IMG/VR virus record: IMGVR_UViG_3300046355_000213
Span: 1-64,000 of that record
DNA: 64,000 bases
From: a virus
Reading direction: 5' to 3' (one strand)
Part shown: piece after piece, positions 2,494 to 64,000 of the stretch
Layout of the letters: every line of letters starts with the position of its first letter
Numbering within the stretch: position 1 is the stretch's first letter
The notes under the pieces: model-generated
What the model was told of the DNA's origin: nothing
The model's database searches: none
What the model saw: the letters and a program-made list of their open reading frames with translations, nothing else
Translations under genes and position numbers: made by a program

Positions 2494-2709
2494 ATGGCAG
2501 ATATCACAATGTGCAGAGATGAGTCTTGTACTAAAAGACTCTCCTGTTACAGGCACACAGCTCCAACAGATTGGTTTTGTCAGACAGTGTTTATGAACTC
2601 ACCTCGTGAAGGTGATAAGTGCAAATACTACTGGCCAACTGAGGAGTCAAAAAACGAGAATAATGAAAGTAATACGGCAGAACACCAAAACCCTGGTCAC
2701 CAGGGATAA
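2494..2709 (+). CDS. small Cys-rich phage protein
   Basis: MADITMC...C...CYR...C pattern. Confidence 0.65.
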   Translation: MADITMCRDESCTKRLSCYRHTAPTDWFCQTVFMNSPREGDKCKYYWPTEESKNENNESNTAEHQNPGHQG

Positions 2710-38164: not shown

Positions 38165-38587
38165 ATGAATCCAGTAATAAACAATATTGATAACCCAGAG
38201 CCTCAGTTTATGCTTCATAATGAACTGATATACTGGTTGGAAAAAAACATGCAAGTCAACTTTAACCTCACCAGAGAAACACCTCCATATATTGTCTTAA
38301 AAGATGGAAGTGGTATAGACTCAGGTGCTGAGATGCTCACCGTATCTGCCTCTATCACAATCAATCAACAAGACGTAAACAATGGAGCTTGGCCTAAAAC
38401 CATCTGTTCATCTTCCCATAAGTTCCTGGCAGTTAAAAATGATAGGGTAATGTATGGAGGATCAACTGATAGAGAGGTGAAAATCTACAGTGACCTAAAT
38501 AGAATGGCTCAGTTGATAAACAAACAACAAGAAGAAATCCAACAATTAAGAGGCTTGATTCAAAGCAAGCAATATCCTATAACATGA
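38165..38587 (+). CDS. hypothetical protein
   Basis: 140-aa ORF, C-terminal coiled coil. Confidence 0.7.
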   Translation: MNPVINNIDNPEPQFMLHNELIYWLEKNMQVNFNLTRETPPYIVLKDGSGIDSGAEMLTVSASITINQQDVNNGAWPKTICSSSHKFLAVKNDRVMYGGSTDREVKIYSDLNRMAQLINKQQEEIQQLRGLIQSKQYPIT

Positions 38588-39057
38588 ATAACTCAGAAGA
38601 AACCCAATTACGTAAAGCACTCTACCTTGATGACGTGCGGACTCCTACTGATACCCTACCTGGTTATGAACCGTGGGTAGTAGTGCGTACGCATGAGCAG
38701 TTCACCGCATACATCAAAGAGCATGGCGTACCTGATTTTATCAGCTTTGACCATGACCTTGCACATGAACACATGCAAGACTACTATGACCAGGTGAAAA
38801 GCTACGGCTTCCAGACACCTTCTTACCACAACTTTAAAGAGCAGACAGGTCTTAGCTCTGCCATGTGGTTAATTGAACACTGTATAGAAAATGAAGTAGC
38901 CCCCAAACAGTGTGCTGTACACAGCCACAACCCGGTAGGTGCAAAGAACATACAGGAATGTATTAATAATTACAAAAAACACTTGGGCCTCCCACAGGAT
39001 TGTTACCTGGGTAGAGTGCCCTTTAAAATTGAGGAAATTAAACTTGAGAAAAAATGA
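38584..39057 (+). CDS. cyclic-phosphate-processing receiver-like domain protein
   Basis: LYLDDVR, ISFDHDL, HSHNPVG. Confidence 0.75.
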   Translation: MNNSEETQLRKALYLDDVRTPTDTLPGYEPWVVVRTHEQFTAYIKEHGVPDFISFDHDLAHEHMQDYYDQVKSYGFQTPSYHNFKEQTGLSSAMWLIEHCIENEVAPKQCAVHSHNPVGAKNIQECINNYKKHLGLPQDCYLGRVPFKIEEIKLEKK

Positions 39058-40334: not shown

Positions 40335-43300
40335 TTATTGTATCCGTATTCCCCACTCTTTACGGAAGTCATCATCAAAGATGGCTGTCATCTGTACAAC
40401 CTCTTTGGTTATAGGCATAAGCCTAAATAAATATTTCAAAGGTCTGGCTTCATCTGTTGTCTCAGAGTCGCCTGTAGCTACTCCCCAACCTTGCTTTAAC
40501 GTAGCTCCCAAGAATCTCTGGGTGTCCTCTGCCAAACTAATAATAGGCAAAGGAGACTTGATCAGGTTGGTAAACTCAATAGGGTTGTAGTAGAAGGCAA
40601 ACTCGTTGTAGTACTTAGACAAAGCCCTGGCTGTGTACTTGCGGATACCCGTGTACTCATCCATCTCATCATCATCTCCTGGTTTAACAGCCATGAGCAT
40701 CATGTAAAAAGCAATAAGAATCATGACCTCTCTGATGGCACTCTTTAAGTTACCAATGTGCATGTCAATGAATTCCGCTTCTGTGATGTTAAACTCCTCC
40801 CCATTTGCATAAGCATCTGCTTTCATGATGTGGTATCTGGCTTTAGCAGCCGCAATAGCACCATCCGAACCAAAACCTAATACAATACCTTTAAGCAACT
40901 GCCCGGCTCTTACGCTGAATAGCTCACCCATTAAACTGTTGAGCTTACCATATTGGTAAACATCCAGGTCACCGTCCTTGTAGAGGTTACCAAATCTTTC
41001 CTTAGCCATAGCCGGGATCCAGCTACGGAACTGCATCAGGGCCATGCCCCAGCTGTTGGTACGGATCAAATTGATGTCATCACTGGTAGAGTTACCAATG
41101 ATAGTCTTAGCTGCTTTTTTAACAGCGGCCCGGAACTTCTCTGAGTTCTCACTGCCCATGTCTACGCCAGGAATGGTCAGCTCATCATTTTCAATCTTGG
41201 CAGTGGCAAATAAACTCTTCTCTTGCTTGAGCTTGGCAATTTGTTCCTCCAACTTAGCTTTGAACTCTTTACGCTCAGCAGCCGGTAAGTTATAAAACGT
41301 ACTGTAGTTCATCTGGTCTTTCACATAGTTAGTGATGTTGACCAAATTACCACTTTCATCTACCATAAAGTTCTGCATCATGGCAATGGCCAGCGGGTTC
41401 TGTACGGCTTTGTCTGCAATACGCTGGAACACATACATGTTATCCAAACTAAAACTAGCTACTGCTTTAGATACAGAGAGCTTATTACCCTTGTTACGCT
41501 TACCGTCTTCCAGTAGCATATCAAAGTAGTCCAGCATAGCAATAGCTTTACTGTCTCTTTTGGTATACAGGTACATGGACTTAACCCAGTCGTCATTATT
41601 CATAACTACTTTCTTGGTACCCAATAAGAACGCGTTACCCGTACCACCTACAAACTGGGCAGAACCTGATAAAGGGTTTAGGGCTAAAGTCTTTAAGCTA
41701 AAGAAGCCCAGGATAAACTGTAGAGACTTCTGTGCAGAGAACGTCTTGCCAAACATCTTGACCTTTACGTCAAACTGTTCACCTGTACGTCTGTTGTACA
41801 AATAGAAATTAGTAAAGTCCTGCAGGATCTTGGCATTACGCTCATTACCCGGCTTGGTGTCAAGCTCTCCGTTAGGAAGTCGCTTACCTTCATTAAACAA
41901 GTTGGTGACAATACTCTCTTTGTTACGCTCCGCTGTGTTTAAGACAAACACGTCATCCTCCAAAGAGCTCATGCCCTCGTAGTTGTACATGTGACCACCC
42001 CAGATAGAGAATACTTTAAACAAGTCCTTGCTCTTTCTGTCGTAGTTTGGAGTAAGACCTCCATCATCTACACCGATGTCACGGGTAAAGTATACCGGCA
42101 CGCGGTTAAGTACCTCTCCTGTAACAGGGTCCTGGTCTGGAAAATACTGTGAGCCAGAGTCAATAGCCAGCTGCTCAAAGAAGTCACCACCGGCAAACAT
42201 TCCTTTGTTCATACCTCCAAAGACTAACTGATCCAATTTACCCTTGAACATAGATGGTATGAACTCCGGAGAGTACTCATCTATCATACCCAGGCGTTCT
42301 GCATGTCTGATCGTAGACTGGAAATACTTGTATGCCTCCATAGCAGGCTCGTTGCCTTTAGCACTAAGCTCTTTCCAACCGGCACTATGCCACTTGGCAC
42401 TAGGCTTTAAGAAATTATTCTTAGGGTTCAGGTATCCGTCCTGGTTAGGCTTACCCTCTTCATCTAAAATATTATGAGTATCTACCCATTTGTAGAAAGC
42501 TTTAGACACTGCTTCGGCATTAGCCTTCTCATCTGTCATAAACTTAGCCTCCTTGTAATACTCTAGTTTACGGGCTCTCTCCTTCTCATAGCGCTCACCG
42601 TCAAACTCCGTGTTCTCTGCAATCCACTTCCAGTCTCCTGTACGGATGGCCTGGTCACGCTGCCTGTAGAATTCACTGTCGTATTTTTTCAGGAAGTTAC
42701 CTGTCCACTTGCCGAGTTTAAAGTCCAGCATGATGTCAAATAACTTATCTCCCGTAATGCCTTTCTTTTTACCCCACTGCTCCAAAGCGTCTTTGTGCTT
42801 GTGAAGTTCTGTCATCATTTTGTTGAAGTCAGCATCGCGCTTGTTCTGCACGTTTCTAAGCATCTTGTAGAAAGTCTGTATGGCTTTAGTATCCAGCTGA
42901 GACAAAGAGTTAAATGTACCGGCTAAAAAGCTTACACCCTTCTCTGACTTCTCAAAGTTCTCTATACCCATACGCTGTGCAATAGAGCTGGCAATCTCTG
43001 TCAGGTTCTCTTCTACCTCCTCAAGGGTAGCTGCAGCATCGGCAGTCATTTGCTTATATACATCTGAGAGTTCTTTGAGGGCTTCAATGTCCTGCGTATT
43101 ACCAGAAGCAATGATATCGCGGTTGTAATCTGCAATGATCTTATTGATGATACCACTGGTAGAACTGAACACAGATAAAGTATCCAGGGCTGTGCGGATA
43201 TCCCTAGGAGTTAGGGCGTCATTGAGCATTAGCTCCCTGATACGGGCAACCTCAGTGTTACCCAGCTCAATAAACTTGTCAATAGATCCTCTTAGCTCAA

Positions 43301-46121
43301 GGTCACGGATAGCATCACGGTAGCGCTTAAGTTCTTCTTTTTGCTTGAACTTCTCTGCTGCCTTGAACTTCTTTTGCTCAATACGCTTATAGATACCGTC
43401 CAGCTTCTTGATCAACTTGTCCAGGTTCTTGTCTCCTGTAGTTTCATCTACAGATACTGGTAACAGGTAGTTTTGGTCATCCGGTATCATAGCCGGGTTG
43501 AAGTCACCAATCTCAATATTTTTCAGCTCCAGGTTGTCTATCTCATTCTTGGCATTCTTTAGGTACACATACTGGGTACGGATAGGAATAGCTCTTACTT
43601 TACCAAACTTGTTGAAGCCGTAGTGCTCCCTTAAGATACGCTTGTATTCTCCCAGCTGTATGCGGTAAGCCTGAGGCTTAAAGTCCTTGATCTCTGTCTG
43701 GAACTTGGCAATCTCCTGGCTCTTCCAGTCATAGATCTCTACTACTCCGCTTGTGGGAATCACGAGCAAGTCAATAGAACCTGCCATGTCAGCCTTAGGA
43801 TCGTAGATCTTTACCTCCTTCATGAACATGGTACCTACAGGATATGAACCAATCAGCTGCTCAAAGTAGCCATCTAACTTTTTCATGATCTCTGTACCTG
43901 CTGCTGCATGAACAACGGGTTGCTTGGCGTCACGCACAAGACCGGTAGCCGGATCAATATACGCCTCATAGATACTCTCCATCATTAAGTGGATAGCATC
44001 ACCGAACTCTGCCTTTAGAAGGTCAAGTTCCTTCTGGCGCTCATCTCTGCGGTCATTAGGGAATATCTTCTTGTAATACGCGTCTACCTTAGCCGTAGTC
44101 ACAGAGGTCTTCACCGGCCTGCCATCATGTTTATAGATGTGGCGCTTTTGCTTAGTCACCGGATCAATAGAGTTATCCAGGATAAGTCTGTTCTGCTCTT
44201 GCTTAAGTAAGTCTATACTACTTGCCAAAGAGAAGTAAATACCTTCCTCGGCATTGATTGATCCAAGATTACTTGTATCTGCAGAGCCGATCTGCTGTGC
44301 TGCTGCAGCAAAAGGATTGTCCTCAGCTTTTCTAAAAGTGTCTGTGATAATCTTCCATACTTTCTCCCACCAGGAAGCAAGCTTGGTGATTTTCTCCTGA
44401 GTCTCATTAGCAGTGTTGCCCTTGATGATATGCTCACTGATCACCTGGCCAATAGCTTCTTTCTTTAACTTAGTAAAGTTTACAGACCCATCCGGGTTTC
44501 TGTACTCTGGCAGGTTCTTGTATAGCTCTACTATTTCACGGTACAGTTGATAAGACGTGATGTCATTCATCATCTGCTTCATCAGCGGGTGATTATCTCC
44601 CAGCATGTTCACAAAGAAGTGAGCTGCCTCCTCTCCTAGTGTCCTGGCGTCCATAGAGCCCTCTGTGACCTGGATAATGCGGTTAAGCATGTCAGCCTTC
44701 GCATTGGCACTGATCGGCTGTCCTGAGGCATCTGTGATGCTGTCAACCGTTTCCACGCTTACCCCTATCTGGGATAAAAAATTTAGTACTTGTTGCTGGA
44801 GTTCCTGCTCTGAAGCCTGAGGGCTTGCAAAGAATTCATCCGGCAGGTTATCTTGCTGAGAGTCTTGTTGAGCCTGGAAGAGTTGGTACTGCTCTTCATC
44901 CTGCATAAGCTGCTCGGTAGTCTTACGGAAGTCTTCTAATATATTAGTAGCCACCGCATACGCCTGACCATAAAGGGCATTAGACTCAGTAATACCAAAA
45001 AGTCCCAGGATATAATCAAACAACTGGTCAAAGATATTGGCGTATTCTTTCTCTCCGGGTTTAGCTGGGATCTCCAGCAGCTGCTTTACAAACTTACCGT
45101 CTGTGAATATACCTACTATGAATTCATCCAGGTCTCTTAGGGCATAGTTGCCTTCACCGGTCTCATCATTATAACCTCCCAGCTTTTCTTTGGCGTAGTC
45201 AAACAAGTTCGTCAAAGCAGTAACTGCCTCGCCATTACTCTTAAGCTCATGGTAAGTCAGACTGTGCAGGATCTCATGGATAATAGTAGGCTCAGAGCCT
45301 GCTCCACGGAATTTAGAGTCCTGGTTAATAAAGATCTCATTAGTGCCTGGGTAGAATATACCTGCAGCGGTCATACCCCTGGCTTGTAAAGCAGGATGAC
45401 TGCCTGGTACCAGGGTAATCTTTACGTCATTAAGCTTAGCATAAGACATTAACTGTCCTGCCAGTTTATTTAAGGGATGGCCGCTGTCTGCAATCTTTTG
45501 CAAGACCTCAGTAGAACGTGTCTCTGTGCTTTCTGTAAAATACTTACGTCCCACGTTAGCATCCTGGGTATTCTTAGCCAGGGCTTTATTAAACACAAAG
45601 ATCTTGTATCCTGAAGGCGTCTGTCTTACCATAAACTTATAGTAAGGACTGCGGTTCAGGCTTGCTATCCGGTCATTGGTCTGCTTGATCTGCTCAGGCG
45701 TGCTGTACTTGACAAAACTGATCTGGCCATACTGGTTGATAAGGTTGAACTTCTTGTACAGGGCCTCATTGCCTTTTAAAGGCATTGGCATCTCAGCTGC
45801 ATTTTGATCCATGAAAGACTTCATAGCAGCATAACTAGGCTCACCATTGGTGTCCATGCCTTCTGTTAATTGTCCTTGGATAGAAGCTAAAGTCACTTCA
45901 TCAATGCCAGAGTCATTAAGCTGTGCTTTGATGGGACGTTCCCAGTCACCAAACCAGGACTTAAAATCATCTGTATAGGCAACTGCCCAGGCGTCTAAAG
46001 CTTCATCCTTATCAGGCATTACCTGGTTAAGGTCAGCAAAGAGCTGGGACTCGTTACCATTTGGTGCCGTCACTTTACTGACAGCACCGGTATTATCTCT
46101 AAATATGTGACATGAAGCCAT
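40335..46121 (-). CDS. giant virion cargo/polyvalent protein: zincin (HEILH), degenerate zincin (EEAAH), PD-(D/E)XK nuclease
   Basis: APNG..S.LF N-terminus, IIHEILH...DEF, LGEEAAH, GSIDLL...IYDWKS, MQFRSW. Confidence 0.85.
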   Translation of the reverse strand: MASCHIFRDNTGAVSKVTAPNGNESQLFADLNQVMPDKDEALDAWAVAYTDDFKSWFGDWERPIKAQLNDSGIDEVTLASIQGQLTEGMDTNGEPSYAAMKSFMDQNAAEMPMPLKGNEALYKKFNLINQYGQISFVKYSTPEQIKQTNDRIASLNRSPYYKFMVRQTPSGYKIFVFNKALAKNTQDANVGRKYFTESTETRSTEVLQKIADSGHPLNKLAGQLMSYAKLNDVKITLVPGSHPALQARGMTAAGIFYPGTNEIFINQDSKFRGAGSEPTIIHEILHSLTYHELKSNGEAVTALTNLFDYAKEKLGGYNDETGEGNYALRDLDEFIVGIFTDGKFVKQLLEIPAKPGEKEYANIFDQLFDYILGLFGITESNALYGQAYAVATNILEDFRKTTEQLMQDEEQYQLFQAQQDSQQDNLPDEFFASPQASEQELQQQVLNFLSQIGVSVETVDSITDASGQPISANAKADMLNRIIQVTEGSMDARTLGEEAAHFFVNMLGDNHPLMKQMMNDITSYQLYREIVELYKNLPEYRNPDGSVNFTKLKKEAIGQVISEHIIKGNTANETQEKITKLASWWEKVWKIITDTFRKAEDNPFAAAAQQIGSADTSNLGSINAEEGIYFSLASSIDLLKQEQNRLILDNSIDPVTKQKRHIYKHDGRPVKTSVTTAKVDAYYKKIFPNDRRDERQKELDLLKAEFGDAIHLMMESIYEAYIDPATGLVRDAKQPVVHAAAGTEIMKKLDGYFEQLIGSYPVGTMFMKEVKIYDPKADMAGSIDLLVIPTSGVVEIYDWKSQEIAKFQTEIKDFKPQAYRIQLGEYKRILREHYGFNKFGKVRAIPIRTQYVYLKNAKNEIDNLELKNIEIGDFNPAMIPDDQNYLLPVSVDETTGDKNLDKLIKKLDGIYKRIEQKKFKAAEKFKQKEELKRYRDAIRDLELRGSIDKFIELGNTEVARIRELMLNDALTPRDIRTALDTLSVFSSTSGIINKIIADYNRDIIASGNTQDIEALKELSDVYKQMTADAAATLEEVEENLTEIASSIAQRMGIENFEKSEKGVSFLAGTFNSLSQLDTKAIQTFYKMLRNVQNKRDADFNKMMTELHKHKDALEQWGKKKGITGDKLFDIMLDFKLGKWTGNFLKKYDSEFYRQRDQAIRTGDWKWIAENTEFDGERYEKERARKLEYYKEAKFMTDEKANAEAVSKAFYKWVDTHNILDEEGKPNQDGYLNPKNNFLKPSAKWHSAGWKELSAKGNEPAMEAYKYFQSTIRHAERLGMIDEYSPEFIPSMFKGKLDQLVFGGMNKGMFAGGDFFEQLAIDSGSQYFPDQDPVTGEVLNRVPVYFTRDIGVDDGGLTPNYDRKSKDLFKVFSIWGGHMYNYEGMSSLEDDVFVLNTAERNKESIVTNLFNEGKRLPNGELDTKPGNERNAKILQDFTNFYLYNRRTGEQFDVKVKMFGKTFSAQKSLQFILGFFSLKTLALNPLSGSAQFVGGTGNAFLLGTKKVVMNNDDWVKSMYLYTKRDSKAIAMLDYFDMLLEDGKRNKGNKLSVSKAVASFSLDNMYVFQRIADKAVQNPLAIAMMQNFMVDESGNLVNITNYVKDQMNYSTFYNLPAAERKEFKAKLEEQIAKLKQEKSLFATAKIENDELTIPGVDMGSENSEKFRAAVKKAAKTIIGNSTSDDINLIRTNSWGMALMQFRSWIPAMAKERFGNLYKDGDLDVYQYGKLNSLMGELFSVRAGQLLKGIVLGFGSDGAIAAAKARYHIMKADAYANGEEFNITEAEFIDMHIGNLKSAIREVMILIAFYMMLMAVKPGDDDEMDEYTGIRKYTARALSKYYNEFAFYYNPIEFTNLIKSPLPIISLAEDTQRFLGATLKQGWGVATGDSETTDEARPLKYLFRLMPITKEVVQMTAIFDDDFRKEWGIRIQ

Positions 46122-46139
46122 AGGGGTATTGTGGGGGGA

Positions 46140-49100
46140 TTAATTGCAACCTTTGTCTTTATCTTCTTTTACTTGGTCAATCTGAGCGCTTCTCACAAAC
46201 TTGCGTACACCTTCTGCATTGCGCAGTACCTCGGTAGCGCCTGTGCTTGCTACAGCAGCATTGAATATCACCAGCTTCTTGCGCGGACGTGACACGGCTG
46301 TGTACATCATGCGGTTCTGCTGTTCTGTTCCACCAGGGAATGACATGATATCATTCTCCAGTACATACGTTGAGTCATACGTACTACCCTGGACTTTATG
46401 AGAAGTGATGGCATATCCGTAGCCAATATCTACGATAGAACCTTTCAGGTCATAAAACTTTCTCCAGGCTGCCTTAGACTCAGACGTACCTCTTGTGTAT
46501 TTTTTAGCTGCAGCAGCTTCCTGTGCCAGGATAGTTTTCCACTTAGCCTTCTCCGTTGGGTTGATGGTCAGCATGGTTGACTTTCTTACGTTAGCCTCAC
46601 CGTTGATATCTACCACAGGAGTGTTAACCGTGATCTCATAGATAGGGAAGCCATACTTTGCAGAAACATCATTGCTGGTTTCTCTTACAGCAGATACTTT
46701 TCCTTTGAAGCCATTCTCAAAAGCAAGCTCTTTACCTACATAGTGAGGCGTGTTTACCCGTACAAAATCTCCTGGTAAATACGGCTGCTCCATAGCATCT
46801 TCAAACAAGGCTGTTCTTACCTGGCGGTTAAAGTTGTCTACTACTTCGTTACGTGCTCCTACAATTACTGATCCTTTTGTAAAGGCCGGATTATTATAAT
46901 CTGCTACGTACTCTGTAACCACAGCTTTAACGTCATTCATGAACTGTACACCCTCGCCGTTCTCCATCTTGTCAGCACGCTCCACTAAAGGATTCTTAAC
47001 CACACCTGGCTGGTCTTTTTGGATACGCTCAATGTTTACAGCAAATACATCTGTAACAGGGATGATAGGACTCTCTGAAGCCTGTCGCATACGCTCTGTA
47101 AGCTCCGCATAGTTAGTGCCCTGCATCAGGTTCCATACAGGTGAGTCTGTGTTATCAGCCACATCAATTGGCGGGATCTGAGCATTGTCTCCCATGAAGA
47201 TGATCTTTGCACCAGGAAGCTTTCTTTCCAGAAGTCTGCCATAGATAAAGTCTCCAATCATGGAAGCCTCATCCACAATGATCAGCCTAGCTGTCTCAAT
47301 AGGATCTGCCTTACCTGCAGCACGGAAGTCTGCTTCTTCATCAGCATTACGCTCTCTGAAATACATAGCGCCAAACTTATCATAGTCCGGTATAAGTCCC
47401 AGCATAGAAGCAATAGTGGCTGTCTTGTAGCCTTTCATAGACTCTTGCAGTACGTTCTTTGCCTCATAAGAAACTGTTGTACCTACAATAGAGTTCTTGC
47501 TTACTCCTGAAGTGGCAATAGCCTTCTGGATAATAGTGGTCTTACCTGTACCTCCACGGCCTTTTAGTAAGAACTGTTGAGCATCTCCTTTTAAGAATCC
47601 TTCTATCTTGTCAATAGCATCACGCTGTCCTTCATTGGCATAGACTCCTTCAAAGAGTTCATACTTCTTATCCAGCTTATCACCTTTAGGTTGCTCAACC
47701 GAAGCTTCAGTAGGAACAACAGACAAGCTATTACTCTCTGCAAAAGGATCTCCATCCCAAGGCACTAAGTTTTCCTCATTAAATAAGTTACCTGCCTGCT
47801 CATCTTGCTGTACTAAAGCGTCTGCTTTGTTGGCAATGTCAATAGCTTCTTGAAGTGTAGGAACATAGTCAGCTATGACACCATCCGGACCCTGGATATC
47901 GTAAGTACCGTCACTTCCTTTTAAGATAGTGAATGCACCAATTTCCAAGGTGTTTGGTGCCTCTGTATTCTCAGCTGCCGGTTGCTCATTAGCCACTTCA
48001 TTAGTCTCACTTTCAGGCATGATCACCTCTGGCTTAGCTACCAGTGCAGCATTGTCAGGATACATCTCCTCACGGGTTGTATTGTTATCAGCCAGCATAG
48101 ATGTAAAGCCTACGTTATTCACTTCAGTGTACATTTTATTGCTTCCTTTTTTGTTGACAGGTCTGAAGATCATATTACCTTTGCCGTCCTCTTTGTATCT
48201 CTCATAAAGTGTATGTACATACATCTTATCATACTGACGGTTTCTTCTCAGCTCTTCTATCTGGTCCTTAGAGTATGCTTTATTAAGTTTTACCACTTTG
48301 ACATAGGGACGCTTGGCAGTATCCATGTCTACGCTTACAGATAAGAAACCACCCATGTTCTTATAGAACTTGGCATTAGGAACAATACTGTCATCCATGA
48401 CGTTATTCTGGTGGAACTGCTTCCAGATACTGGCTGTGTTCAGCTCCATCTCCGGGCTGTTCTTAAACGCATCCAGGATTAACTTAGAAGTGTTTGAAAA
48501 GATCTCCACCGGCAACACGCGTACAAAGTTGAACGCTGTCTCCTGGTTGCCGCCCTGGATCATAGTTAAATAAGCCAGGTCTTTTAAGAACCCTTCAAGC
48601 TCAGTGTTACCTGAGTTGATAGCATACTGATACAGGTCTTTAGCAGAGTCTAGTGTCAGGTTAGTGCGGTAGCTGTCTGTTACACGTCTTAGCATCTTGA
48701 TGACATCAGGCTTGCCTTCTTCACTAGCAATCACCTGCATCAATTCTTTTAAGAACATGTTGTTCTGGATATTCTTATCTGTGCTTTCCTTGATTACTTT
48801 CAGTCTGCGGGCCATGCTGTTGTTACCCATCAACAATCTTTCTGCATGTGCTGCAATGTTGGTCTGGTTACCAGACTCATCCATGAAAGGTGTAGTCTGC
48901 ATGATGTAGTTAATCAGGAAGTCGTTGTACTTCATGATCAGCTCCTCTTGCATATCACGGGTTAAGAAAGCACCTGAGTCTAGTAAGTCTAGTGCAGGCT
49001 GGAACGCTTTTCTGGTACGCTGGTCAAGGGACACAAAGAATGGTGTGAAGAGTTCAAAGATGTCTTCTTTTTGCTTCTTCAACTCACCCATAAATGTGTT

Positions 49101-52100
49101 GTCCATGATACCCTCAGGGTTGGCAATAAAGCCCTTGCTGGATACTTTTCTCCAACGGCCTATCTGCATCACGTTTTCAGTGATACTCTTAGTCTTCACG
49201 TTGTCATAGCCAATACCGGAGATAAACTCAGTCATGTTAGAAGATTGTTCCTGGTACTCAAGGAAGTCAGCCAGTACGGCTATCTGCATCTGAGCATCGG
49301 CAGCAGTCATTACGTAATCCTTAGCATTCATACGCTGAATAGAATCCCGTAGTCCGGCCTCTGTCATTGTACCTACCTGCTTGCGGTTTACGTCTACCAC
49401 TTCTTTAAACATCTTCTTAACCAACTTGAGCTCCTTAAAGTTCCCGTCCTCAGTAGCTTGTACATATCTCTTGTATAAGCTTGTCTGCTCATTAGGGTAT
49501 AGAGCTTTGTAGTACGGTGTGATCATCTTCAAAGCAATTAAGAAGTCATTGATCTTATCACCAGACAACTTCTTGAACAAACTCTTGTTCTTAGCACGCT
49601 CCTTGAATAATCTGTCCAGTACCGGTTGGTTGAACATGTATGCTAACTCTGTAATAGGAACACCTAACTTCTGTAAGTAAAACCAGGTACCAGCTGTATC
49701 AATAGTGATATTCAGAGAGAACACAAACGGGTCTTTAGCAGCATCCACAAAGCCTGATAGGGCTTCATTGATTAAGTCAGAGATCATCATACCGTCTTGG
49801 GTAGTCAAGCTATCCAGGAACAACTGATTCTCCTCGTCTAAATTGTGGCTCAAGTTGATCTTCACATCACGCATACGCGGATTGTCCCCTAAGTTTTTCA
49901 CTACGTTGTTTACCAGGTAGTACAGTTTACCTGCATCATACTTACCCGTTAGTTTAGTTTCACCCAGCTGGGTCATCACTTGAGAAGTGATCTGCAGGGC
50001 AGCAATACCTACTAGTTTTTTACCACTTAAGAAACGGTGACGGATATCCGCTGAGTCAATTAAGCTTCTGTATATTGCATACTTAGAAGATGCTGTAAGA
50101 TCTTCCACACCTTTGAGTCTGTTGATCTCATCCGCCATGTTCTTCAGAGTATCTGTAGAGTTAGGCGTAATCAACTGACGCATGTTCTCAGGAAGTGTTA
50201 CCAGGTCCTGCATGATCTCACGATAGCGGTTCTGGATAGACTTCTTCACAGCTGCATCTAAAAATGCTTTCTTGCGTGACTGTACATCTTTCATCTCTTC
50301 TAAGAAGTCCTTAGTCAAAGACTCTGAGTCAAAGAATTTACTGAACACCTCACGGATCTTCTTGCCTTCTAAAATACTGATGCTCTCTGTTGCATTATAG
50401 TACAACTGCTCAGCAAGGAATGTATCCAGTAAAGCTTGCTCCTCAGGGGTGATAAACTCCCCTTTGTTGTAAAGCTTCTCGTAGTGCTCACGCGTAGCCT
50501 CCTGGGTACCTTTCCATTCGTAGTAAGAAGCTTTACCGTTCTTAGCTACATAGAAGTTAGCCAGGTACATCTGTAACTTGTCAATGTCAAAGTCAGATCC
50601 TGCTTTACCAGTGATCTCTGAAGGCACAACTACCATGTCACCCATCTCTCTTGGCAAGAAGCCTTTGATAGTGATACTCTCAATAGAGTTCATACCTTGT
50701 GTAGGGATACGGAAACCAAGGGCTTTTAAGATACGTGGGTCAATGTCTTTTACATTGATCACTCCGTTTACAGCGCCCGGCAGATTAACACCTTCTAAGA
50801 AGTTAGGAAGATAGACCTCCATGTTGGCAATCTTGCCGTTCTCCATACGGTAGAACTTCAAGTCATTGCTTACCATGCGTACAGAAGCTTGCTCCTCTAC
50901 ACTTAAGTCTTCCAGCTTCATACCTTTGGTAGAAGTCCAGACACCGTCTTTTAAGTATACAAAGCTTCTGCTCTTACTCTCAAATAATGTGCTGGCCACC
51001 TGTACTGCAGGCTTACCGTTCATCTTCTCTGAGATCACACGGCTGTCTACAATAGAGTTCAGGATATTGTCAATCTTCTTGCGGTTAGGCAGCGCATCTA
51101 ATGGGTAGCGGAAGTCAGTCTTGCCGTACTCATTTTCAATAGTGTCAATAGCATCAATGATGTTATCAGGCAGGTCACGGCTCTTAGCTTCTTTTCTTAA
51201 AAGAGAGACCATCTTGGACACGTCCTTCACAGAATACTTACCTGCGGCGTTACGGGTAACACCCAGTTCTTTGAGTAACTTTTCTTTACCCAGCATCACC
51301 ATTTGAGCCAGGATATTATTGTACTCTGTTACTAACTTCTCAGCCTCAGGGGAAGTATACTTACCTCTGAACTTGAAGTTAGACATGATGAGTTTAGTCG
51401 GCTGTGTACCACGAACTACCGCACTCTTAAATGCGTTAGGCATCTCTTGCTGAATACCCAAGTAACGGCTTAGTAAATTTTGTACAGGAATATCAGGCAG
51501 GTTAACTGCACCTTCTTCTTCTACGATGTTTACTTTACCTTCGCTATTGTAGATAGCAGCAAACTCACCTTTCTGGTTGAGCATGTTACCAACCTTCTGA
51601 CCAGACTCAAAACCAATAATGTCTATCTGTCTGTCTAAAGCACTTAAGTATAAGTTTTCAAAAGCAGTATTTTCTACCTGGCGGTAGAACTTAGGCTGCG
51701 TAGAGTTCTTTAAGAACACGGTGTGCATCAAAGGACTCTGTGGATTGTATCCAAAGTACTGAGGCTTCAATACCTGTAGAACAGTGCCTGGATTTCCCTT
51801 AGCTAATGTTGCTCTTGCAGCATCTAGTTGAGCCTCTGAGTATGATCGGTAAGCTACATGGTCTTCAGGCTTAGAGCTGCGGGCAATCATTTCATAAGCA
51901 ATTTCATAATCCCACTGAGCTTGTTGCTCGTGCGTCATGCGAGAGCTTAAGTACAACAGGTCACGGAACATGTCTGGCATGATCCAAGCCTGGGCATCAG
52001 CTTCGTTGATGTCTAAATACTTAGCTGCATCTCCGTAGTTCTTGCCCTTGCTATCTACTTTTAGTTTTACAAACTTTCCGTCTGCTGTAAACTCTGCACC

Positions 52101-55100
52101 AATACGCTCCTCAACTGCAGCTTTATCTTTCTGTAATTCTACCATGGATTTGTACATAGTCTCTACGTACTCAATCATCATGGCTGCTACAACAGTGTTG
52201 TCCTTGAAAGATATGTTGTTAAACGTAGCCAGTTGCTCACCAGAGCGTCTCTTACCATCATGGCGGGACATATTGTCATCCATCCATTGTCTGATCTCCA
52301 GGTTGTCAATAAAGGCAATCTTGGTAGAGTTGGCACCGTTAGAACGCTTAGCCAGGTCTTTGTATAAAGCAGGGTGGCCATAGATCAACTTGTGTTGTTC
52401 TGCTACTGCTACTTCTTTGTTGATTACAAGGAAAGCAATCAGGTTGTTCAACTCATTTTCTGTGATAGCATTCTTATCCTGGATACCGTAACCGGCCAGT
52501 AACTCTGCGTTGATAGAGTTAGTGGCGTAGATCACTTCACCTGCTTCATTGTCACCTACATCAAAGAACATATCCATGTCTTCCAGTGCAGCCTTAGTAC
52601 GCTCAATCTCATTGTTGATGTACTCCATGATACGGCTAGATACTTCAGTAGACGAAATCAAACTGCTCTTGGTAGTTTTTCCTTCTACCACAGACTTGAT
52701 CCGTGCACTGAACTCAGGTCCCAGGATATCCCGGAAGTGAGCCAGCTTCTTCACCTCAGCACCGTAGTACTGGATGTTGCTTGGGTTCTTGTGCTCAGCA
52801 ATGGCCGCATCAAGCTCATCACTTAGTTGGTCTAAGTATATCGTGAGAACTTTACCACCGGATACGAATATGTTAGCATCATCAAAACTTACCAGGGACT
52901 CATTAAAGCCAAGACCAAACTCTGTACTCTTGTCTGAGTTAATGATGGTATAGTGTACGTTTCCTAACAAGTGGTTGATCTCCTGCATTACGCGGTCCGG
53001 GTAAGTCAACACATCAGTGTTCTTTCCTGTACCGGTTGCTTCTGTCACACCACTAATCAGGTGATAGTTCAAGTCAGCACCTTTACGCTTCTTGCCATTT
53101 CTGTCAAAGAAGAGCCCTCCTTTTTTCAGCAACATAGAGTTGGTCTGATACGGGTGTAATACGACTGTACCCTGGCTGTCTACGGTTCCAAACTGTGGAT
53201 TGCTCGTTACAAAGTCAGCTAAAGTCTTAGCCACCTTGAATGAGTTCAACAGGTAAGAAATAGTAGAAGGCTGTGTAATCGTATACTGGTTCTCTCCTTC
53301 TGCATTCTTATGTACCAGAACATTCTCCTCTGGCGTAGTAGCTACTTCAATGTTAAGTAATGTTTGGATTGGACCATTGACAATGCTTCTTCCAAAGAGC
53401 TGGTCAATCGTGTTGATAGACTCGTCTGTGATCTTACTGCGGATAGCACTGTAGGCATCCATGATCTCTGCCTCAAACGATTGTAAGGCTTTATTGCTGG
53501 CAGTAAACTTGATACCCATGATATCCAAAGCGTCCAGTACAGAAGCAAAGTCCGTAGCGCCCATAGCCTGAGCATACTCGCCAGAAGTTCTGTCTAGTAT
53601 AATGCTGCCATTGTCATTGATAGTAAGTAACGTCTCGCCGTTACGCTGGTTATAAGGAACCGCAGTATCTTTGATAGCATTGCTCCACTCAGCACGCTTG
53701 TTATTCTGAGACGCTGTGTCCAGGGAGGCATCATTATAGATAAGTCCGTCACCACCAAACACCATCTTGATAGGGTCATTCTGCATGTTGGTCAAGCTCT
53801 GCTCAAACGCAATACGTAGTCTGACATCATCCGGGGTCAGGTTAGCAACTTCAATCTTAGCACCTGTCTGTGGGTTCAGGTACTTCAAGCGTACCTTCAT
53901 ACGATAGATCCACTCAAAGCCTTCTTTGTACACGCCGTTCTTCTTCTGGAAGCGCTTGTCTAAGGTGTCAAACATCGCGTCAATACCAGGAACAAACTCA
54001 CCACCCTCAATGCGCGACATAGAGCCGTTCAGTTCATTAAGCAGGATAGCATAGATACGGTCATAGTTGCTTAGCTTAGGAAGACCCAAAGCGTTTTTCT
54101 TAAACTCATAACGCTTAGTCTTGTCATTGTACACGTCATCTGTCAAGCTGCCCATAAGTAACTTGAAGTTGGTTGCACCAAATCTGCGTGGGTCAATCTT
54201 TACAGCGTCTGTAATACCCAGGCCATCTGAGTTTAACTCATCCGGAATAGCCTCCAGGTCTTCAGAGATATCAGAAAATGATACACCAAAGCGGCCTATG
54301 CTTCCCTTGAACAACTCATAAAGCTCCATAGGTTGTTGCTTTATAGTTTCCATCTGTGTGTACAGACGGTTGCCAGGGATGAAGTAGTTATCTTTTAGCT
54401 CACGCTTCTCAGCTTCTGTAGCTTTACGGCTTACTTGTTTCTCATACTGCTTGACATAGTTTTGAAACACCGCGTCAAAGTGTGCTGTAATAGCCGTATC
54501 CATGTCTTGCAAAGCTGCATTGAACAGACGCACCAACTCTTTGTTGTTGTTGGCATCCGTCTTGATCAGGGCATCCATGTTCTTACCTTCTTTATAAAGG
54601 TTCATGAAGAAGTAAGACGTTAGTCCTTCTACTGCATAAGTAGTTACCTCTTGTGTGGTTCCAGGTATAGAACGGTAAACAGCTTGCAGGTTGTTCAGGT
54701 CACGCACCGGTACCGCATTGGCAAAACCACCCTGGTTGATTTTCACAAACAGGTTATTGACCACGTTGTCCATTTCAGCACGGTCTTCTTTGCTAAGGCC
54801 CAGGATCTTCTTGATGAAGTCCATCACTTTGGTAAAGAAGCTCTTTGCCTTTGGAGCACCTACCGGGAAATTACCTGTTAAGATATAAGTACGGAACTCC
54901 TCAGCCAGCATCTCACGTACATCGTACATGTTGGCATCCTTGTATTCTTTGGTCTCACCGGTGAACGGGTTGGTAAATGTACCTTTTCTGCTGCTAAATT
55001 CCTTAGCAAGGATAGCCTGCTCAGGAGCGGTCAGGTATGCGTTCCACACAGCCTCAAAAGCTTCGTGGAATGCGGTGCCTTCTTCTGCATTCTCATACAA

Positions 55101-58100
55101 GAAGATAGCTCCTCTCATAAACGCACCATAGGCCTTATTGTGAATTAACGTGCTTACTACATGTAAGGGTACGCCTGGTAAGACGCGGGTCAAAAATGCC
55201 TGCACCTTTGCCAGGTCTTCACGTTTCACATCCGGGTTACCTAAGGATAGTCTATAGAACTCATCCTGGAATGGTACTTCACCATCTTCCAGGTTGGCTA
55301 TGTCATTGCCCAGTAACACACTCATAGCCGTAGGGTCCAGTCCTTTTGTAGCAGGGCCAGCCGCTGGTGCCGGAGGTGTTGCAGCCGTTGAGCTGCCTGC
55401 AGTGGTTACCTGGTCTGCAGGTACTACTACCGCCGCTGGTTTTGCACCACCCATTCTAAGGGAACTCTTGCCTGTTGCAGGTGTATCTTCTTTCTTAGTA
55501 GGGCTCTTTGTACCTGCTACCGTAGTTGGCGCAGGAGTAGCCGTTGTAGCAGCAGGTTGAACTGCTGTGGTAGGCATAGTCTTGTTCCACTTTAGTCCGC
55601 CTGTTGCTGCAGGAGGTGTTGACACTAATGTATCTTTTTCACCAGGTGCCGGGATCTTAGAACTTACCGGCTCATCAGAGGTGTTGAATACTAAGTATCT
55701 ACCTTCTATCTGATAATCAGCACTGTTTACATTAGGGTTGTAAGGTTGGGAGTTGGTATACAGAATAGGTCTTCTGCCACCAGTGTTGTCCATCAGAAAA
55801 GCGTTGTAGCTTGGGAAGGTCTCCCGCTCTGCTACACCACCGTTCATCTTCACTGCCTGGAATGCTCCTTTCTTGTTCAGTAAACTATTGTTCACCGAGT
55901 AGTACAGGTTTTCCAGGATTGCCTCAAAGTTTCCATCTATAGAAACTTCTGTAAATGCCCAGGACTGTGTGCCACGGAATAACTTACCCTTGTTGACATA
56001 GAACTGGTTAGGTCCTGCTGCCTTACCTTTATCAGGAGAAGACCAGAATACAGTACCGCTTAGGTAGTTTAAAATATCTTTCTTTTGACGGGCCTGATCA
56101 GCAGTTAAGTTTTTCTTACCCATCAGTTTTGTCAGTGCCTTTAGTGCATCCTTTAAGTTCACAAGCTCTTCTTCTGAGAACTTGCGGCTCTTAATTCTAA
56201 ACACGTTACCTGTCTTTTTACCACGGGCAACCATACGGCCTTTGTCTACACCACCCATGTTAAGGGCTTTGTCTACTGTGCCAATAGCCAGTTCAATAAC
56301 TTCACCATTAGGATGCTCTAGGTTAAGGAAATCATCTGAGTCAGATTTGATCACACTGCCTTGTAAAGCAATCTCCTGAGGCATACCTGTATTGATATCC
56401 TTTGGGGCCAGTCTTACTGTACCTTTGCTTCTTCCTACTACAGGGAAAGCAACTACTTCACCTGCAATATTACTAGCCTTGATGGCGTCGCGCTCTGTCT
56501 TGAAGTTTTCAATGGCACCAAGTATCTGGTCATCTGTTAAATCTTTAGTGGCAAAGTTTTTCTTAACCAGTTCAACGGCTTTAGCCTTGTCTTCACCAAA
56601 GAGTACCTCACTGCCATTCATGGAAGTGTAGACAATAGTGTCCTTGGTAGGATTCTGTAACTCGTTACCCTCCTGGTCCACATACACAAAGCTGTCTCCT
56701 ACTTTCTTTACGACTACCAGCTTGATATCATCCTGGTACTTGTCTTCGCGTCTGATGCCAAAAGTATCATTGGCCGCTGTAACAGGAATTAAAAAGTAAG
56801 TGTCTGGCTCAAACATCATGCGCTCCGTAAAGCGGAAGAAGCGGTTAGAACCGTTCTCTGTATTTAATGTGCCATCCCAGTTAAAGTGCTGGCCGGTTGT
56901 CTTAAAGAAAAATGTAGAGCCAAACACAGGCTTTGAACTTCTCACCTGTCCTTCTTCATCTACCTCGTCCTCTTCAATGCCGTCATTGTCCGTATCTACT
57001 ACCGGTGTATTATCCGGCTTATTAGTAGGGTCTAAATCTTCCGGTCTGGGCAAGTCATCTGTTACTTCAACACTAGTGTCTTCTGCAGTAGTAGCAGTTT
57101 GCTCTGCACGCTTCTTAGCAAAGGCCCGGAATGCTTTGTAGTTTCTGTCTAAGTAGTTGGCAAAGAAGTCAGGGTCTGCTAATAAGTTGATGTGCTCCAG
57201 TACTGATCCCTGGTCTTCCTGTAATTGGAAGTAGTCTGTCAGGTTACCAAAAGCATCATTGGCTACAGCAGTCTGTACCGGACGTTGTCCGTTTTTCTCC
57301 AGCTCCGCGTTTACATATTCTGTAAAGAATTGACTGCCCTGCTTTTTGAATTGCTCCAAAGCTGCAGCTGTTTGCTCCGCACTCTGATCTGCTGACAAGC
57401 CCTTGTTGCCTTTAATAGCATCTACCTTGTCTAAGTATTTGGTCAGGGCTTTTTGATAGCGCTCCAATTTCTTGAGCTTGGCTTTCTTCTCAGCACCTAA
57501 CTTAGGATCTGTGTTGACTTCAATTTCCTGCTGCAACATGTTCACCTCTTTTTCCAGTTCTAACTGAGAGGTTAAAGTAAACACGGTGGAGAAAGGCAGG
57601 TTCTCAAAACCTTGCTTAGTCTTGATGCCATCCAGTACCTGTTGTTGTCTGGTAATTGTAGCTTGGTAAGTATCCTGCATAAAAGTCATCTGGTTCACAG
57701 CTTCTTTAAATGCCATGTACCGGTATGCCTCATCAATAAACTCAGGGGTACCAATTTTGTGTTGTCCCGGATTGAACGGGTTGACAAACTCTGTCTGCAG
57801 TTTGTTGTGGATCTTAGCCACTTGTTCTGCACGAGTCTGGAACTTAGTCACCTGCTGCACCATGCTCTCATGGTTCTCTTTAGAGAACTCCACACCAAAA
57901 GCCTGGGTAAATTCCTCAGGGCTCAGGTTCTTCACATAGTCTTGCATTCTACCTGTAAGTACATCCAGTGTACCGGTAGTGATACCTGTCATGATAAAGT
58001 GACGCATAGCATCATCCTGGATATCATGAAAAGTCTTCTTGTCTTTATCAACTGCCGCGTCCTTCATTAGGGAAGCAAAGTTGGCCTGCATGGTTACTCC

Positions 58101-62786: not shown

Positions 62787-64000
62787 TTACTGTGTCATTC
62801 TCATGGCTGGAAACTGTCTGTTTTGCATACCGGCCATCATCTGCATGAATGGGTTCATCACAGAAGTAAAATCAGGGTAGCCATCATTGTCCTTATCAGT
62901 GGTAGTAGTACGGCCTTTTTGTTTCATCTGCTCGTCAGCCCATGCAGTTGCTTTGTCCATGGGCATTTTTAAGGTCTCCGTAGCATACTTGATCATCTCA
63001 GGATAAGTAGTTGCTGCTGCACCTGTACCTCTTGCACCACGGATCATGCTGTTGATGTCACGATTAGGATCTTTCTGTTTGGCAAATCCTGTACGGGAGT
63101 CAATCATGAAGTAAGGGTTGGTAGCATTGATGCCATCCACCATTGCACGGTTGTTCCAGGCATTGTTGTATGCTGCCAGCAATTGACTGTCAGCAGCACT
63201 TTGGTTACGGAAGTTTTCTTTCAGTGCATTGTTTGCCATCTCGTTGTACATCGTACTTGCCTGGGCACGGTTAGCCAGATACTGGTTATCCATCTGTGCA
63301 CCTTGTGTCTCATACTGATTGGCAATCATTACGTTTTGCTTATTTACCGCTCCTGCGTTGGCTTCATTGGCTGCCAGGTTTCTTCCTGCCACCTGTGATG
63401 CGCCTGCTAAGAATTGCTGTGGTCTTCCAAAGGTTCTCATACCCTGCATCTGCATGTTAGCCATCTCAGCATTCGCTGCATAGTCGCGGGTAGGGTCCAT
63501 GAATACGGCCTTTGGTTTTACATAACCAGGTGTAGCTACAAAGGGCTTGATCGTAGGAATGGTTGCTCTGGTAGCCAGGGCCTGCATACCTGCCAGCTTA
63601 TCTGGTAATAAGTAATCAGCATTAGGCATTTTATATGGAGCACCTGCTGTCCCTGGTTGTGGACCTGAAAGCATTTCCTCTTCAGACGTAGAACTAGTGT
63701 AAGGAGGGTAGCTGTTAGGTACAGGAGCCAAAGTAGGCAACTTCATCTGTACTGGGATAGGCATAGGAGCTCTTTGGATAGGGTCTACTTTTTCCATCAA
63801 ACGCGGTGCACGGAAATCATAATAACCGTCATTGAACTGTTGCTTTAACTGCTCATCGGTTAACTGATTCACTGCTTTACCAGGATACATCTTCTTGCCC
63901 TTGTTAGTTAAAGGGACATTCTTTAGATAATTCACAAACTGGTTGTTGAACTCAGGATCTTTTTGAGCACTCTGGATCATCCACTTCTGCCACTGGTCCA
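62787..64000 (-). CDS. virion cargo protein, 5'-truncated
   Basis: Frame open to window end; Q/N/A-rich helical, no Cys seen. Confidence 0.7.
   Translation of the reverse strand, partial: DQWQKWMIQSAQKDPEFNNQFVNYLKNVPLTNKGKKMYPGKAVNQLTDEQLKQQFNDGYYDFRAPRLMEKVDPIQRAPMPIPVQMKLPTLAPVPNSYPPYTSSTSEEEMLSGPQPGTAGAPYKMPNADYLLPDKLAGMQALATRATIPTIKPFVATPGYVKPKAVFMDPTRDYAANAEMANMQMQGMRTFGRPQQFLAGASQVAGRNLAANEANAGAVNKQNVMIANQYETQGAQMDNQYLANRAQASTMYNEMANNALKENFRNQSAADSQLLAAYNNAWNNRAMVDGINATNPYFMIDSRTGFAKQKDPNRDINSMIRGARGTGAAATTYPEMIKYATETLKMPMDKATAWADEQMKQKGRTTTTDKDNDGYPDFTSVMNPFMQMMAGMQNRQFPAMRMTQ

Follow-up and report, generated by a model that had tools for sequence, protein, structure and literature searches.

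Paired terminal cysteines mark the splits between crassvirus cargo proteins and may join them head to tail

Crassviruses are the most abundant viruses of the human gut, and a virion RNA polymerase with its accessory proteins makes up a cargo module in their genomes. In phage crAss001 the module consists of gp47, gp50 and gp49, and in phage phi14:2 of g067, g066 and g065. The crAss001 proteins have been found in the virion by mass spectrometry and are expected to be ejected partly unfolded; the atlas of that phage, which calls them cargo, puts forward N-to-C ejection for gp45, with gp47, gp49 and gp50 partly unfolded (PMC10172136). The phi14:2 cargo proteins carry a virion annotation based on tandem mass spectrometry in their record. 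The same genes in the same order are found in the DNA considered here, a stretch of 64,000 nucleotides (the window) that comprises positions 1 to 64,000 of the IMG/VR virus record IMGVR_UViG_3300046355_000213 and forms part of a 125,034-bp crassvirus genome on a single contig. The subject of this article is a pair of cysteines at the adjoining ends of two giant cargo proteins of this phage, one of 4560 and one of 1928 amino acids, and the link that the pair may form between them.

The resemblance to the Crassvirales cargo module includes a two-barrel RNA polymerase with a DFDID motif, a downstream zincin-like protein with an HExxH motif and a conserved C-terminal region, and the crassvirus capsid and ring genes. 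By its gene content the genome is that of a crassvirus, with Pfam matches to Crass_capsid (E 2.1e-32), CrAss_Ring_1 and CrAss_Ring_2, all above the cut-offs. The polymerase region matches chain A of PDB entry 6VR4 (phmmer E 2.2e-19), and the 4560-amino-acid protein to which it belongs matches phi14:2 g066 (BLASTP E 3.7e-30). BLASTP matches of the 1928-amino-acid protein are a 1714-amino-acid protein of cr108_1 (E 3.8e-33), a 2007-amino-acid protein of cr55_1 and phi14:2 g065. Unlike crAss001 and phi14:2, the window phage has the gp47-like and gp50-like parts in one protein, and it adds a RecD/Dda-like helicase to this first link and a PD-(D/E)XK nuclease to the last link. The terminal cysteine pattern of the window phage is the same in the crAss001 and phi14:2 cargo. 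Judging from this homology, the cargo proteins of the window phage would likewise be present in the virion and be ejected.

The other close comparison is with N4-like phages, which also have a giant virion-packaged RNA polymerase and ejection proteins purged of cysteine. In the Schitoviridae the purge covers gp50/gp71, gp72 and gp73 family-wide and has been ascribed to passage through the cell envelope; the polymerase is a single polypeptide with zero cysteine, and the few cysteines of partner proteins have been ascribed to annotation errors, according to the sections of that study drawn on here (PMC11445570). The same sections back the statement of an earlier note on this DNA that the N4 virion RNA polymerase lacks cysteine. 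Unlike the Schitoviridae, the window phage and its relatives keep paired cysteines at defined terminal positions at every protein-level split. Cysteine suppression in N4-like ejected proteins is already in print (PMC11445570); what is new here is that cysteine-purged ejection proteins keep what appears to be a conserved end-to-end clasp.

The earlier note had reported that the cargo proteins of the window hold only two cysteines, and this stands after cysteines were counted computationally from the translations. The sole cysteine of the 4560-amino-acid protein is residue 4559, the penultimate one (..KDKGCN), and that of the 1928-amino-acid protein is residue 4 (MASCHIF..). The 952-amino-acid protein has none, as the note had said, and neither has the partial open reading frame (ORF) at the edge of the window (62787-63998). 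In the full genome this ORF is complete at 656 amino acids, still with 0 cysteines, and the next ORF upstream (490 amino acids) also has 0, so that all three upstream cargo proteins are free of cysteine. The whole cargo block amounts to 2 cysteines in 8586 amino acids, both at the junction of the two giants, against a background of 115 in 9894 (1.16%) for the 35 other window ORFs of at least 150 amino acids. In each of the two giant genes the triplets TGT and TGC occur 53-289 times per non-coding frame and once in the coding frame. The depletion is therefore real and acts on the protein, and base composition is not its cause.

The two cysteine codons are parted by one Asn codon, a TAA stop, 18 bases and three codons. 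The ATG of the 1928-amino-acid ORF is the first start past the upstream stop, and residues 1-27 are conserved in homologues, with M1, C4, I6, R8, V17, A19, N21, G22, S25 and L27 invariant (alignment A4), which indicates that this start is sound. The earlier note had pointed out that the 18 bases between the genes are in frame and free of stops. That description is correct, but the arrangement is not kept in relatives: gaps at the 16 adjacent junctions are 18, 2, 1, 6, 6, 2, 1, -1, -1, 2, 1, -17, 2, 12, 119 and 130 nucleotides, and only 4 of the 16 are in frame, close to the one-third given by chance. The in-frame spacer is incidental, and stop-codon readthrough or translational fusion through it is ruled out as a general explanation.

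The pair itself is kept. A cysteine near the upstream C terminus and another near the downstream N terminus are found together at every one of the 30 protein-level junctions examined, which come from 22 genomes or contig groups, two of these junctions with caveats that are given below, and the pairing seen by the earlier note in one phage thus holds across relatives. At all 30 the upstream cysteine lies 0-10 residues from the end and the downstream one at residue 3-6 (M-x(1-4)-C). In crAss001 the single cysteine of gp47 (2341 amino acids) is residue 2339, gp50 (2412 amino acids) has cysteines 5, 1334 and 2404, and the single one of gp49 (1349 amino acids) is residue 5. In phi14:2 the one cysteine of g067 (1797 amino acids) is its last residue, the crystallised polymerase g066 (2180 amino acids) has exactly two, at 3 and 2179, and g065 (1421 amino acids) has one at 3. 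The pair is also present in cr108_1, cr4_1, cr55_1, cr128_1, DAC15, IAS virus, cr118_1, cr109_1, cr11_1 and cr3_1; in IMG/VR contigs L001-L010, L013, L019 and L021-L023; and in Leptolyngbya phage Lbo-JY46 and Cellulophaga phage phi17:2, neither of which the International Committee on Taxonomy of Viruses places in Crassvirales. The Intestiviridae were sampled through crAss002, cr11_1 and cr3_1. A locus search with the C-terminal 519 amino acids of the giant found no relative among viral contigs.

In crAss001, cr128_1, DAC15 and IAS virus the gp47-like gene is on the opposite strand from gp50 and gp49, and the pair is retained. Pairs that persist between non-adjacent genes on opposite strands are no artefact of a gene junction or of translation. 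A cause at the level of nucleotides, gene junctions or translation is ruled out on this ground and by the abundance of TGT and TGC in other frames.

The cargo ORFs of cr4_1 and cr109_1 contain 7-70 in-frame stops under table 11, and such stops are also present in the IMG/VR relatives L001-L013. Stop-codon reassignment is known in some crass-like phages and fits these stops; the terminal cysteine pattern is unaffected by it.

Protein databases extend the pattern well beyond these genomes. With residues 1-450 of the 1928-amino-acid protein as query, a word-indexed search returned 38 proteins, 31 of them crass-type. Among the 31, 29 have a cysteine at residue 3-6, for most the sole cysteine, and the exceptions (P0010 and P0021) are upstream-type proteins that end in ..ICQV and ..NNCK. 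A second search, with residues 3700-4560 of the giant, returned 46 proteins of 2755-6564 amino acids, of which 44 have a cysteine 0-4 residues before the C terminus. The 20 that have a further cysteine at residue 3-6 are middle links. The crass-type members of these two sets come to 77 proteins and 261,747 residues with 177 cysteines (49 N-terminal, 47 C-terminal and 81 internal, the last 0.031%); a terminal cysteine is present in 76 of the 77, and 49 have terminal cysteines only.

For the third set, 1.84 billion cluster representatives were searched exhaustively by HMMER, the query being residues 1-500 of the 1928-amino-acid protein; the zincin-like domain accounts for most matches. From the 150 proteins listed, the 146 new ones, with less than 50% mutual identity, were analysed. 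Their 272,868 residues hold 226 cysteines, of which 112 fall at residues 3-8 and 65 lie 0-7 residues before the C terminus; the other 49 are internal (0.018%). Terminal cysteines are found in 134 of these proteins and are the only ones in 114; by class, 69 have the N-terminal cysteine only, 43 have both, 22 have the C-terminal one only and 12 have neither. All sets pooled, there are 223 proteins with 403 cysteines, and 163 proteins have terminal cysteines only.

These counts bear on the plainest rival, that the cysteines reflect chance, relaxed selection at disordered termini or gene-calling artefacts. The termini are indeed predicted to be floppy, and the start codon of one relative is probably misannotated. 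Against this, the terminal cysteines are invariant among proteins of 20-30% identity amid neighbours that vary, and the terminal windows make up far less than 1% of residues yet hold 96 of the 177 cysteines in the 77 proteins and 112 plus 65 of the 226 in the 146. The background in the genome is just 3 of 86 other ORFs with a cysteine at residues 2-8 and 4 of 86 with one in the last five residues. The counts have already refuted this explanation, and practically no weight is left on it.

The searches also returned proteins of another kind. Seven polyvalent proteins of phages and conjugative elements that are not crass-type (P0033-P0035 and P0037-P0040) share the APNG..FKSWFGDW N-terminal domain and the modular, multi-enzyme build of the cargo. 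They have a normal cysteine content of 58 in 12,902 amino acids, with 4-14 in each and none terminal, and they start directly with the APNG motif, without the M-x-x-C hairpin of the cargo.

Where the cysteines stand depends on the place of a protein in its series. First links have no N-terminal cysteine, last links have no C-terminal one and middle links have both, and in each genome examined the numbers of C-terminal and N-terminal cysteines balance. Many stand-alone zincin-domain proteins of about 270-800 amino acids have exactly two cysteines, one at each terminus (for example P0092, P0094, P0104, P0108, P0116 and P0134). Some lineages thus seem to have their cargo divided into small beads, as in contig L021, where a 296-amino-acid protein lies between two larger links.

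Fusions provide natural controls. Architectures mapped by BLASTP differ among families: in the Steigviridae gp47, gp50 and gp49 are separate and there are two pairs; in the Suoliviridae and the window phage gp47 and gp50 are fused and there is one pair; and in the Intestiviridae gp50 and gp49 are fused and there is again one pair, at the other junction. No cysteine pair was found at the fused sites in these mapped architectures, and the window phage cargo has no internal cysteine at all. Loss of the cysteines in fused orthologues, which the earlier note had left as a point to check, is seen in P0062, P0101, P0114, P0152 and P0185. Four of these (P0101, P0114, P0152 and P0185) are complete single-chain fusions that run from a gp47-like N terminus to a gp49-like C terminus and have no terminal cysteine; P0152 has 0 cysteines in 6334 amino acids. 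In P0062 a 27-residue linker leads from the helicase domain directly to the position that matches residue ~113 of the downstream protein; the tail is missing, as are some 110 initial residues of the downstream protein and the two cysteines. The other eight of the 12 third-set proteins without a terminal cysteine are fragments or unplaced (P0160, P0163, P0168, P0203, P0215, P0219, P0222 and P0231).

An intron supplies a further control. The polymerase gene of cr108_1 is split by a 290-nucleotide gap that is a group I intron (RF00028, 80 bits, E 1.1e-20); the exon ends align contiguously to residues 3077/3078 of the window phage protein, and neither exon end has a cysteine. The loss of the pair in fusions and its absence at the intron mean that it marks protein-level splits only. 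The distribution of the cysteines, their conservation and their strict association with protein-level splits are matters of observation. The intron spans positions 18375-18693 of locus L014 (about 58374-58692 of MT774385.1), right beside the DFDID motif, and the annotated cr108_1 "proteins" of 2967 and 798 amino acids are the two exons of one gene, exon 1 ending at the equivalent of residue 3077 and exon 2 running from 3078.

Polarity, balance in each genome and loss on fusion together argue that each C-terminal cysteine works with the N-terminal cysteine of the next protein, and the pair is very probably a conserved, functional link between chains of some kind. A different account gives the cysteines independent roles, such as homodimers (tail to tail or head to head), attachment to another part of the virion, a cysteine switch of the zincin or a redox sensor, with the pieces held together noncovalently at most. 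Several observations favor it: the disulfide, proposed from patterns of residues, is unseen as a bond; a zincin domain is often near the junction, starting about 180 residues after Cys4 in the window phage and lying about 100-250 residues before the C-terminal cysteine of gp65 in cr11_1; and many short zincin-only proteins have a cysteine at both ends. Independent roles predict neither the polarity nor the balance, with inner ends of the chain always carrying a cysteine and outer ends never; they also do not predict that both sides are present at all 30 junctions or that single-chain fusions lack terminal cysteines, and the capsid protein and three other cargo proteins of the window phage have no cysteine to bond with. 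This account is unlikely. Its most specific form, the metalloprotease cysteine switch, was rejected, as pairs are present at the phi14:2 g067/g066 and crAss001 gp47/gp50 junctions, where neither protein end has a zincin.

Another covalent chemistry (thioester, thioether, enzymatic ligation or intein-like trans-splicing) could in principle religate or process the pieces. Ligation uses terminal nucleophiles on both partners, and processing of fused polyproteins has been proposed in the portions of the preprint by Drobysheva et al. drawn on here (bioRxiv 10.1101/2020.03.07.982082). The N-terminal cysteine is at residue 3-6, however, and not at residue 1, the C-terminal one is followed by 0-4 variable residues, and no known splicing or ligation signature accompanies them; such chemistry is very improbable. 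A split intein or trans-splicing was specifically ruled out, with no Hint or intein family found by Pfam in the four cargo proteins at E up to 0.01 and with 2-5 residues before the N-terminal cysteine and 0-4 after the C-terminal one.

The reading that best fits the pattern, and is probably though not securely right, is a head-to-tail intermolecular disulfide that makes a linear thread of the virion RNA polymerase and its accessory cargo and is unstitched in the reducing cytoplasm. With one thiol on each side and no conserved second ligand, a disulfide is the simplest bond. The alternative of a metal bridge (Zn, Fe or Cu) between the terminal thiols, with extra ligands from neighboring residues or from a second copy of the pair, would have the same consequences for chaining. 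It draws on the identical pairing evidence and requires no oxidation in an anoxic habitat, and in the window phage a His follows Cys4 (MASCH). Against it are the single cysteine at each terminus and the want of a conserved second ligand: the closest relatives have Q in place of the His (MASCQ, MATCQ), and the flanks of the C-terminal cysteine vary. A two-ligand site would also be weak for a tether that must resist the forces of ejection, and a metal bridge is improbable. The interpretation offered by the earlier note, in which a disulfide or metal link joins the cargo into one thread for ordered packaging and ejection and is released in the reducing cytoplasm, is supported; the choice of a disulfide over a metal bridge, the role in threading and ejection and the release by reduction are what we infer.

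The steps of the proposed disulfide thread can be set out for the window phage, where the virion cargo (RNA polymerase with helicase, zincin and nuclease modules) would be encoded as two polypeptides. The C-terminal tail of the 4560-amino-acid protein would dock on the N-terminal module of the 1928-amino-acid protein, and the thiols of Cys4559 and Cys4 would form one intermolecular disulfide in the virion. Separate pieces would in this way form one chain of linear topology, the equivalent of the polyprotein that some relatives make in one piece. The thread would pass along the portal and tail channel behind the preceding protein, N terminus first and in gene order. With the bond within a few residues of both ends, the junction would be hardly thicker than one chain, and internal cysteines would have been purged because other disulfides would form loops or branches that block threading. 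The reducing cytoplasm of the host would then break the bond and free the pieces. In crAss001 a full chain of this kind would have a mass of about 694 kDa (262.5 + 276.9 + 154.5 kDa, by the masses in PMC10172136). A general rule for crassviruses and their relatives can be framed from this, by which the terminal cysteines number 2 x (cargo polypeptides - 1) and stitch the split cargo into one linear, megadalton thread injected N terminus first; the chances that it holds seem evenly balanced.

Reductive release in the cytoplasm is suggested by likeness to the AB toxins, such as tetanus and botulinum toxins, in which a bond holds a chain that is translocated unfolded across a membrane and is broken in the reducing cytosol. 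In these toxins a single disulfide links two protomers (PMC6899712). The analogy is functional and involves no homology: the toxin chains arise from nicking of one polypeptide and their bond is not at the extreme termini, whereas the cargo proteins are translated separately and would be linked serially, head to tail. Closer at hand, intermolecular disulfides are present in crAss001 virions in tail and portal-vertex proteins, and those of the gp57 dimer, the tail hub and the ring show that such bonds form and persist in crassvirus particles (PMC10172136). These structural disulfides are seen in density and brace folded, static proteins, whereas the proposed cargo bonds would join mobile, unseen proteins end to end.

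Structure prediction gives some picture of the junction. AlphaFold2 models were made of the last 519 residues of the giant (mean predicted local distance difference test, pLDDT, 81.4) and of the first 500 residues of the 1928-amino-acid protein (mean pLDDT 72.2). The helicase is folded in the first model, and the final ~35 residues have a pLDDT of 35-46; this tail is variable except for K4555, K4557 and C4559 (alignment A2). In the second model residues 1-4 are coil, followed by a hairpin of residues 5-8/14-18. In homologues the residues ahead of the C-terminal cysteine alternate between hydrophobic and polar (for example KITLTC), as do those behind the N-terminal cysteine (for example CSYTYRGK and CKIIFKR), a pattern that we infer would suit strand pairing.

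A complex prediction that paired the helicase and its tail with residues 1-180 of the partner scored 0.51 (runs 0.47, 0.57 and 0.51), which is weak support for the proposed docking. The runs agree in at least 45% of contacts, the partner has a pLDDT of at least 81, and none of three controls scored above 0.00. Of 80 solved complexes, 58 reached the mark used, as did 2 of 110 mismatched pairs; among those passing, scores of 0.60 or lower were seen in only 7 of the 80 solved complexes and in both mismatches.

Several points weigh against the disulfide thread. The whole case rests on sequence patterns, and the complex model, besides being weak, comes without reported contacts for the two cysteines. 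Virions assemble in a reducing cytoplasm and gut crassviruses inhabit an anoxic habitat, so the timing and means of oxidation are a difficulty. Among 124 ORFs of the genome, a Pfam scan (E up to 1e-4) detected neither a thioredoxin or glutaredoxin nor a sulfhydryl oxidase, and the idea of a thiol oxidase or thioredoxin encoded by the window phage was dropped at that threshold. A middle link with a cysteine at each end could also cyclize or polymerize, and specific docking would be needed to prevent this. The cysteine purge is not absolute, given the internal cysteines kept by some relatives (10 in IAS gp056 and 5-7 in proteins of cr4_1, cr108_1 and crAss002).

Individual loci raise further difficulties for the disulfide thread. 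Of the two junctions with caveats, that of crAss002 fits only if gp33 starts at an in-frame MSC, residues 33-35 of the annotated protein. At the other, in contig L021, the upstream cysteine is 10 residues from the end and a small cysteine-rich ORF lies in between. IAS gp055 ends in ..LILCNGD, yet the next protein, gp056, has no N-terminal cysteine; the record has ambiguous bases there, and gp055 and gp056 together correspond to gp50, so that they may be a broken gp50 gene, a reading that is unproven. P0085 lacks a C-terminal cysteine; however, the protein takes up the whole of a short contig, and its helicase seems truncated. In Lbo-JY46 a 674-amino-acid protein outside the chain has an unpaired Cys5.

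Some of these loci merit description of their own. The annotated start of crAss002 gp33 (NC_055828.1; locus L026, 9270-9368) is probably 32 codons too far upstream, and the in-frame MSCTPSNPKLDKL agrees with the MSC starts of the relatives cr11_1 and cr3_1; between gp32 and gp33 there is a hairpin with a T-run behind it. The 674-amino-acid protein of Lbo-JY46 (locus L028, 2626-4650) has its sole cysteine at residue 5 (MKKKC) and no evident partner with a C-terminal cysteine, and it is unexplained by the chain rule; by its end motif, judged by eye, it looks homologous to a 970-amino-acid protein of the window phage. Genes annotated as thioredoxin or thiol-disulfide isomerase lie near the cargo block in cr108_1 and cr128_1.

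The features of the cargo module are collected in Table 1.

Table 1. Cargo-module features of the window phage, in window coordinates
Feature	Position	Strand	Details
Gene of the 4560-amino-acid first link	46140..59822	-	gp47-like N-terminal part; two-barrel virion RNA polymerase (gp50/g066-like); C-terminal RecD/Dda-like superfamily 1 (SF1) helicase
DFDID catalytic motif of the RNA polymerase, residues 3077-3081	50580..50594	-	S3076, D3077, D3079 and D3081 invariant (alignment A2)
SF1 helicase domain, residues 4060-4550	46173..47645	-	Pfam AAA_30, AAA_19, UvrD_C_2, PIF1; phrog_325; folded in AlphaFold2 model
C-terminal tail of ~35 residues, 4526-4560, predicted floppy, KDKGC tip	46143..46247	-	AlphaFold2 pLDDT 35-46, fragment residues 485-519
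Codon TGC, Cys4559, sole cysteine of the 4560-amino-acid protein	46146..46148	-	Translation; invariant in alignments A2 and A5
18-nucleotide spacer, TAA stop of giant gene to ATG of next gene	46122..46139	-	In frame, stop-free
Gene of the 1928-amino-acid last link (gp49/g065-like)	40335..46121	-	N-terminal cysteine, beta-hairpin, APNG..FKSWFGDWE domain, zincin-like domain, PD-(D/E)XK nuclease, conserved C-terminal region
Codon TGT, Cys4, sole cysteine of the 1928-amino-acid protein (M-A-S-C)	46110..46112	-	Translation; invariant in alignments A1, A3 and A4
Predicted beta-hairpin, residues 5-18, right behind Cys4	46068..46109	-	AlphaFold2 strands 5-8 and 14-18, block pLDDT 80-85
HEILH (HExxH) motif of zincin-like domain, residues 282-286	45264..45278	-	Sequence motif
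PD-(D/E)XK nuclease domain, residues 698-923	43353..44030	-	Pfam PF12705, E 1.4e-06, 28.8 bits against cut-off 22
952-amino-acid cysteine-free cargo-block protein	59874..62732	-	No family matches
3' part of the 656-amino-acid cysteine-free cargo-block gene, running to genome position 64757	62787..64000	-	Translation

If the helicase and the nuclease enter the host together with the polymerase, they might act during infection on the ends of host or phage DNA. The 490-amino-acid cysteine-free protein has motifs that by eye resemble a cell-wall hydrolase and no Pfam match. Just upstream of the cysteine-free block, the 970-amino-acid protein mentioned above (genome 66270-69182, minus strand) carries DUF5872 and a YkuD L,D-transpeptidase domain; some of its 10 cysteines are in CxxC-like pairs.

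Elsewhere in the window, a tyrosine recombinase (5121-6008, minus strand; Pfam Phage_integrase E 3.3e-19) hints at integration or dimer resolution. Two accessory genes are unusual for a phage: a spore photoproduct lyase-like ORF (2663-3511, plus strand; PF20903) and an ORF with a cyclic-phosphate-processing receiver domain (38584-39054, plus strand; PF20274). Outside the window, a small ORF (genome 110931-111140, minus strand) has a Tad2-like domain of Thoeris anti-defence (PF11195, E 1.7e-09).

The terminal cysteines of crassvirus cargo go unmentioned in the open-access and bioRxiv literature searched. The words "cysteine" and "disulfide" are absent from the main texts of the phi14:2 preprint, Yutin 2021 and the 2023 Crassvirales review. 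In the crAss001 atlas, for which both reduced and non-reduced samples were acquired, "cysteine" is absent and the seven passages with "disulfide" all concern tail or portal-vertex proteins (PMC10172136). These cargo proteins are unseen in the atlas, which raises the delivery of a multi-subunit RNA polymerase through a narrow tail as an open question (PMC10172136).

A conserved end-to-end clasp would offer a concrete model for that delivery, one that is testable in cultured crAss001 and phi14:2. It would account for the cysteine purge as well as for its exceptions, and it would explain how the cargo can keep its function whether it is encoded in a single gene or divided among two, three or more. 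The terminal cysteines may also serve as an annotation mark for true starts and stops and for chain order in metagenomic crass-like genomes, as the probably wrong start of crAss002 gp33 illustrates. If the disulfide thread is right, the virion RNA polymerase would be released, and perhaps activated, at a time set by reduction of the bonds; the thread would be a new principle for ordering the ejection of phage proteins and would explain the purge of all other cysteines.

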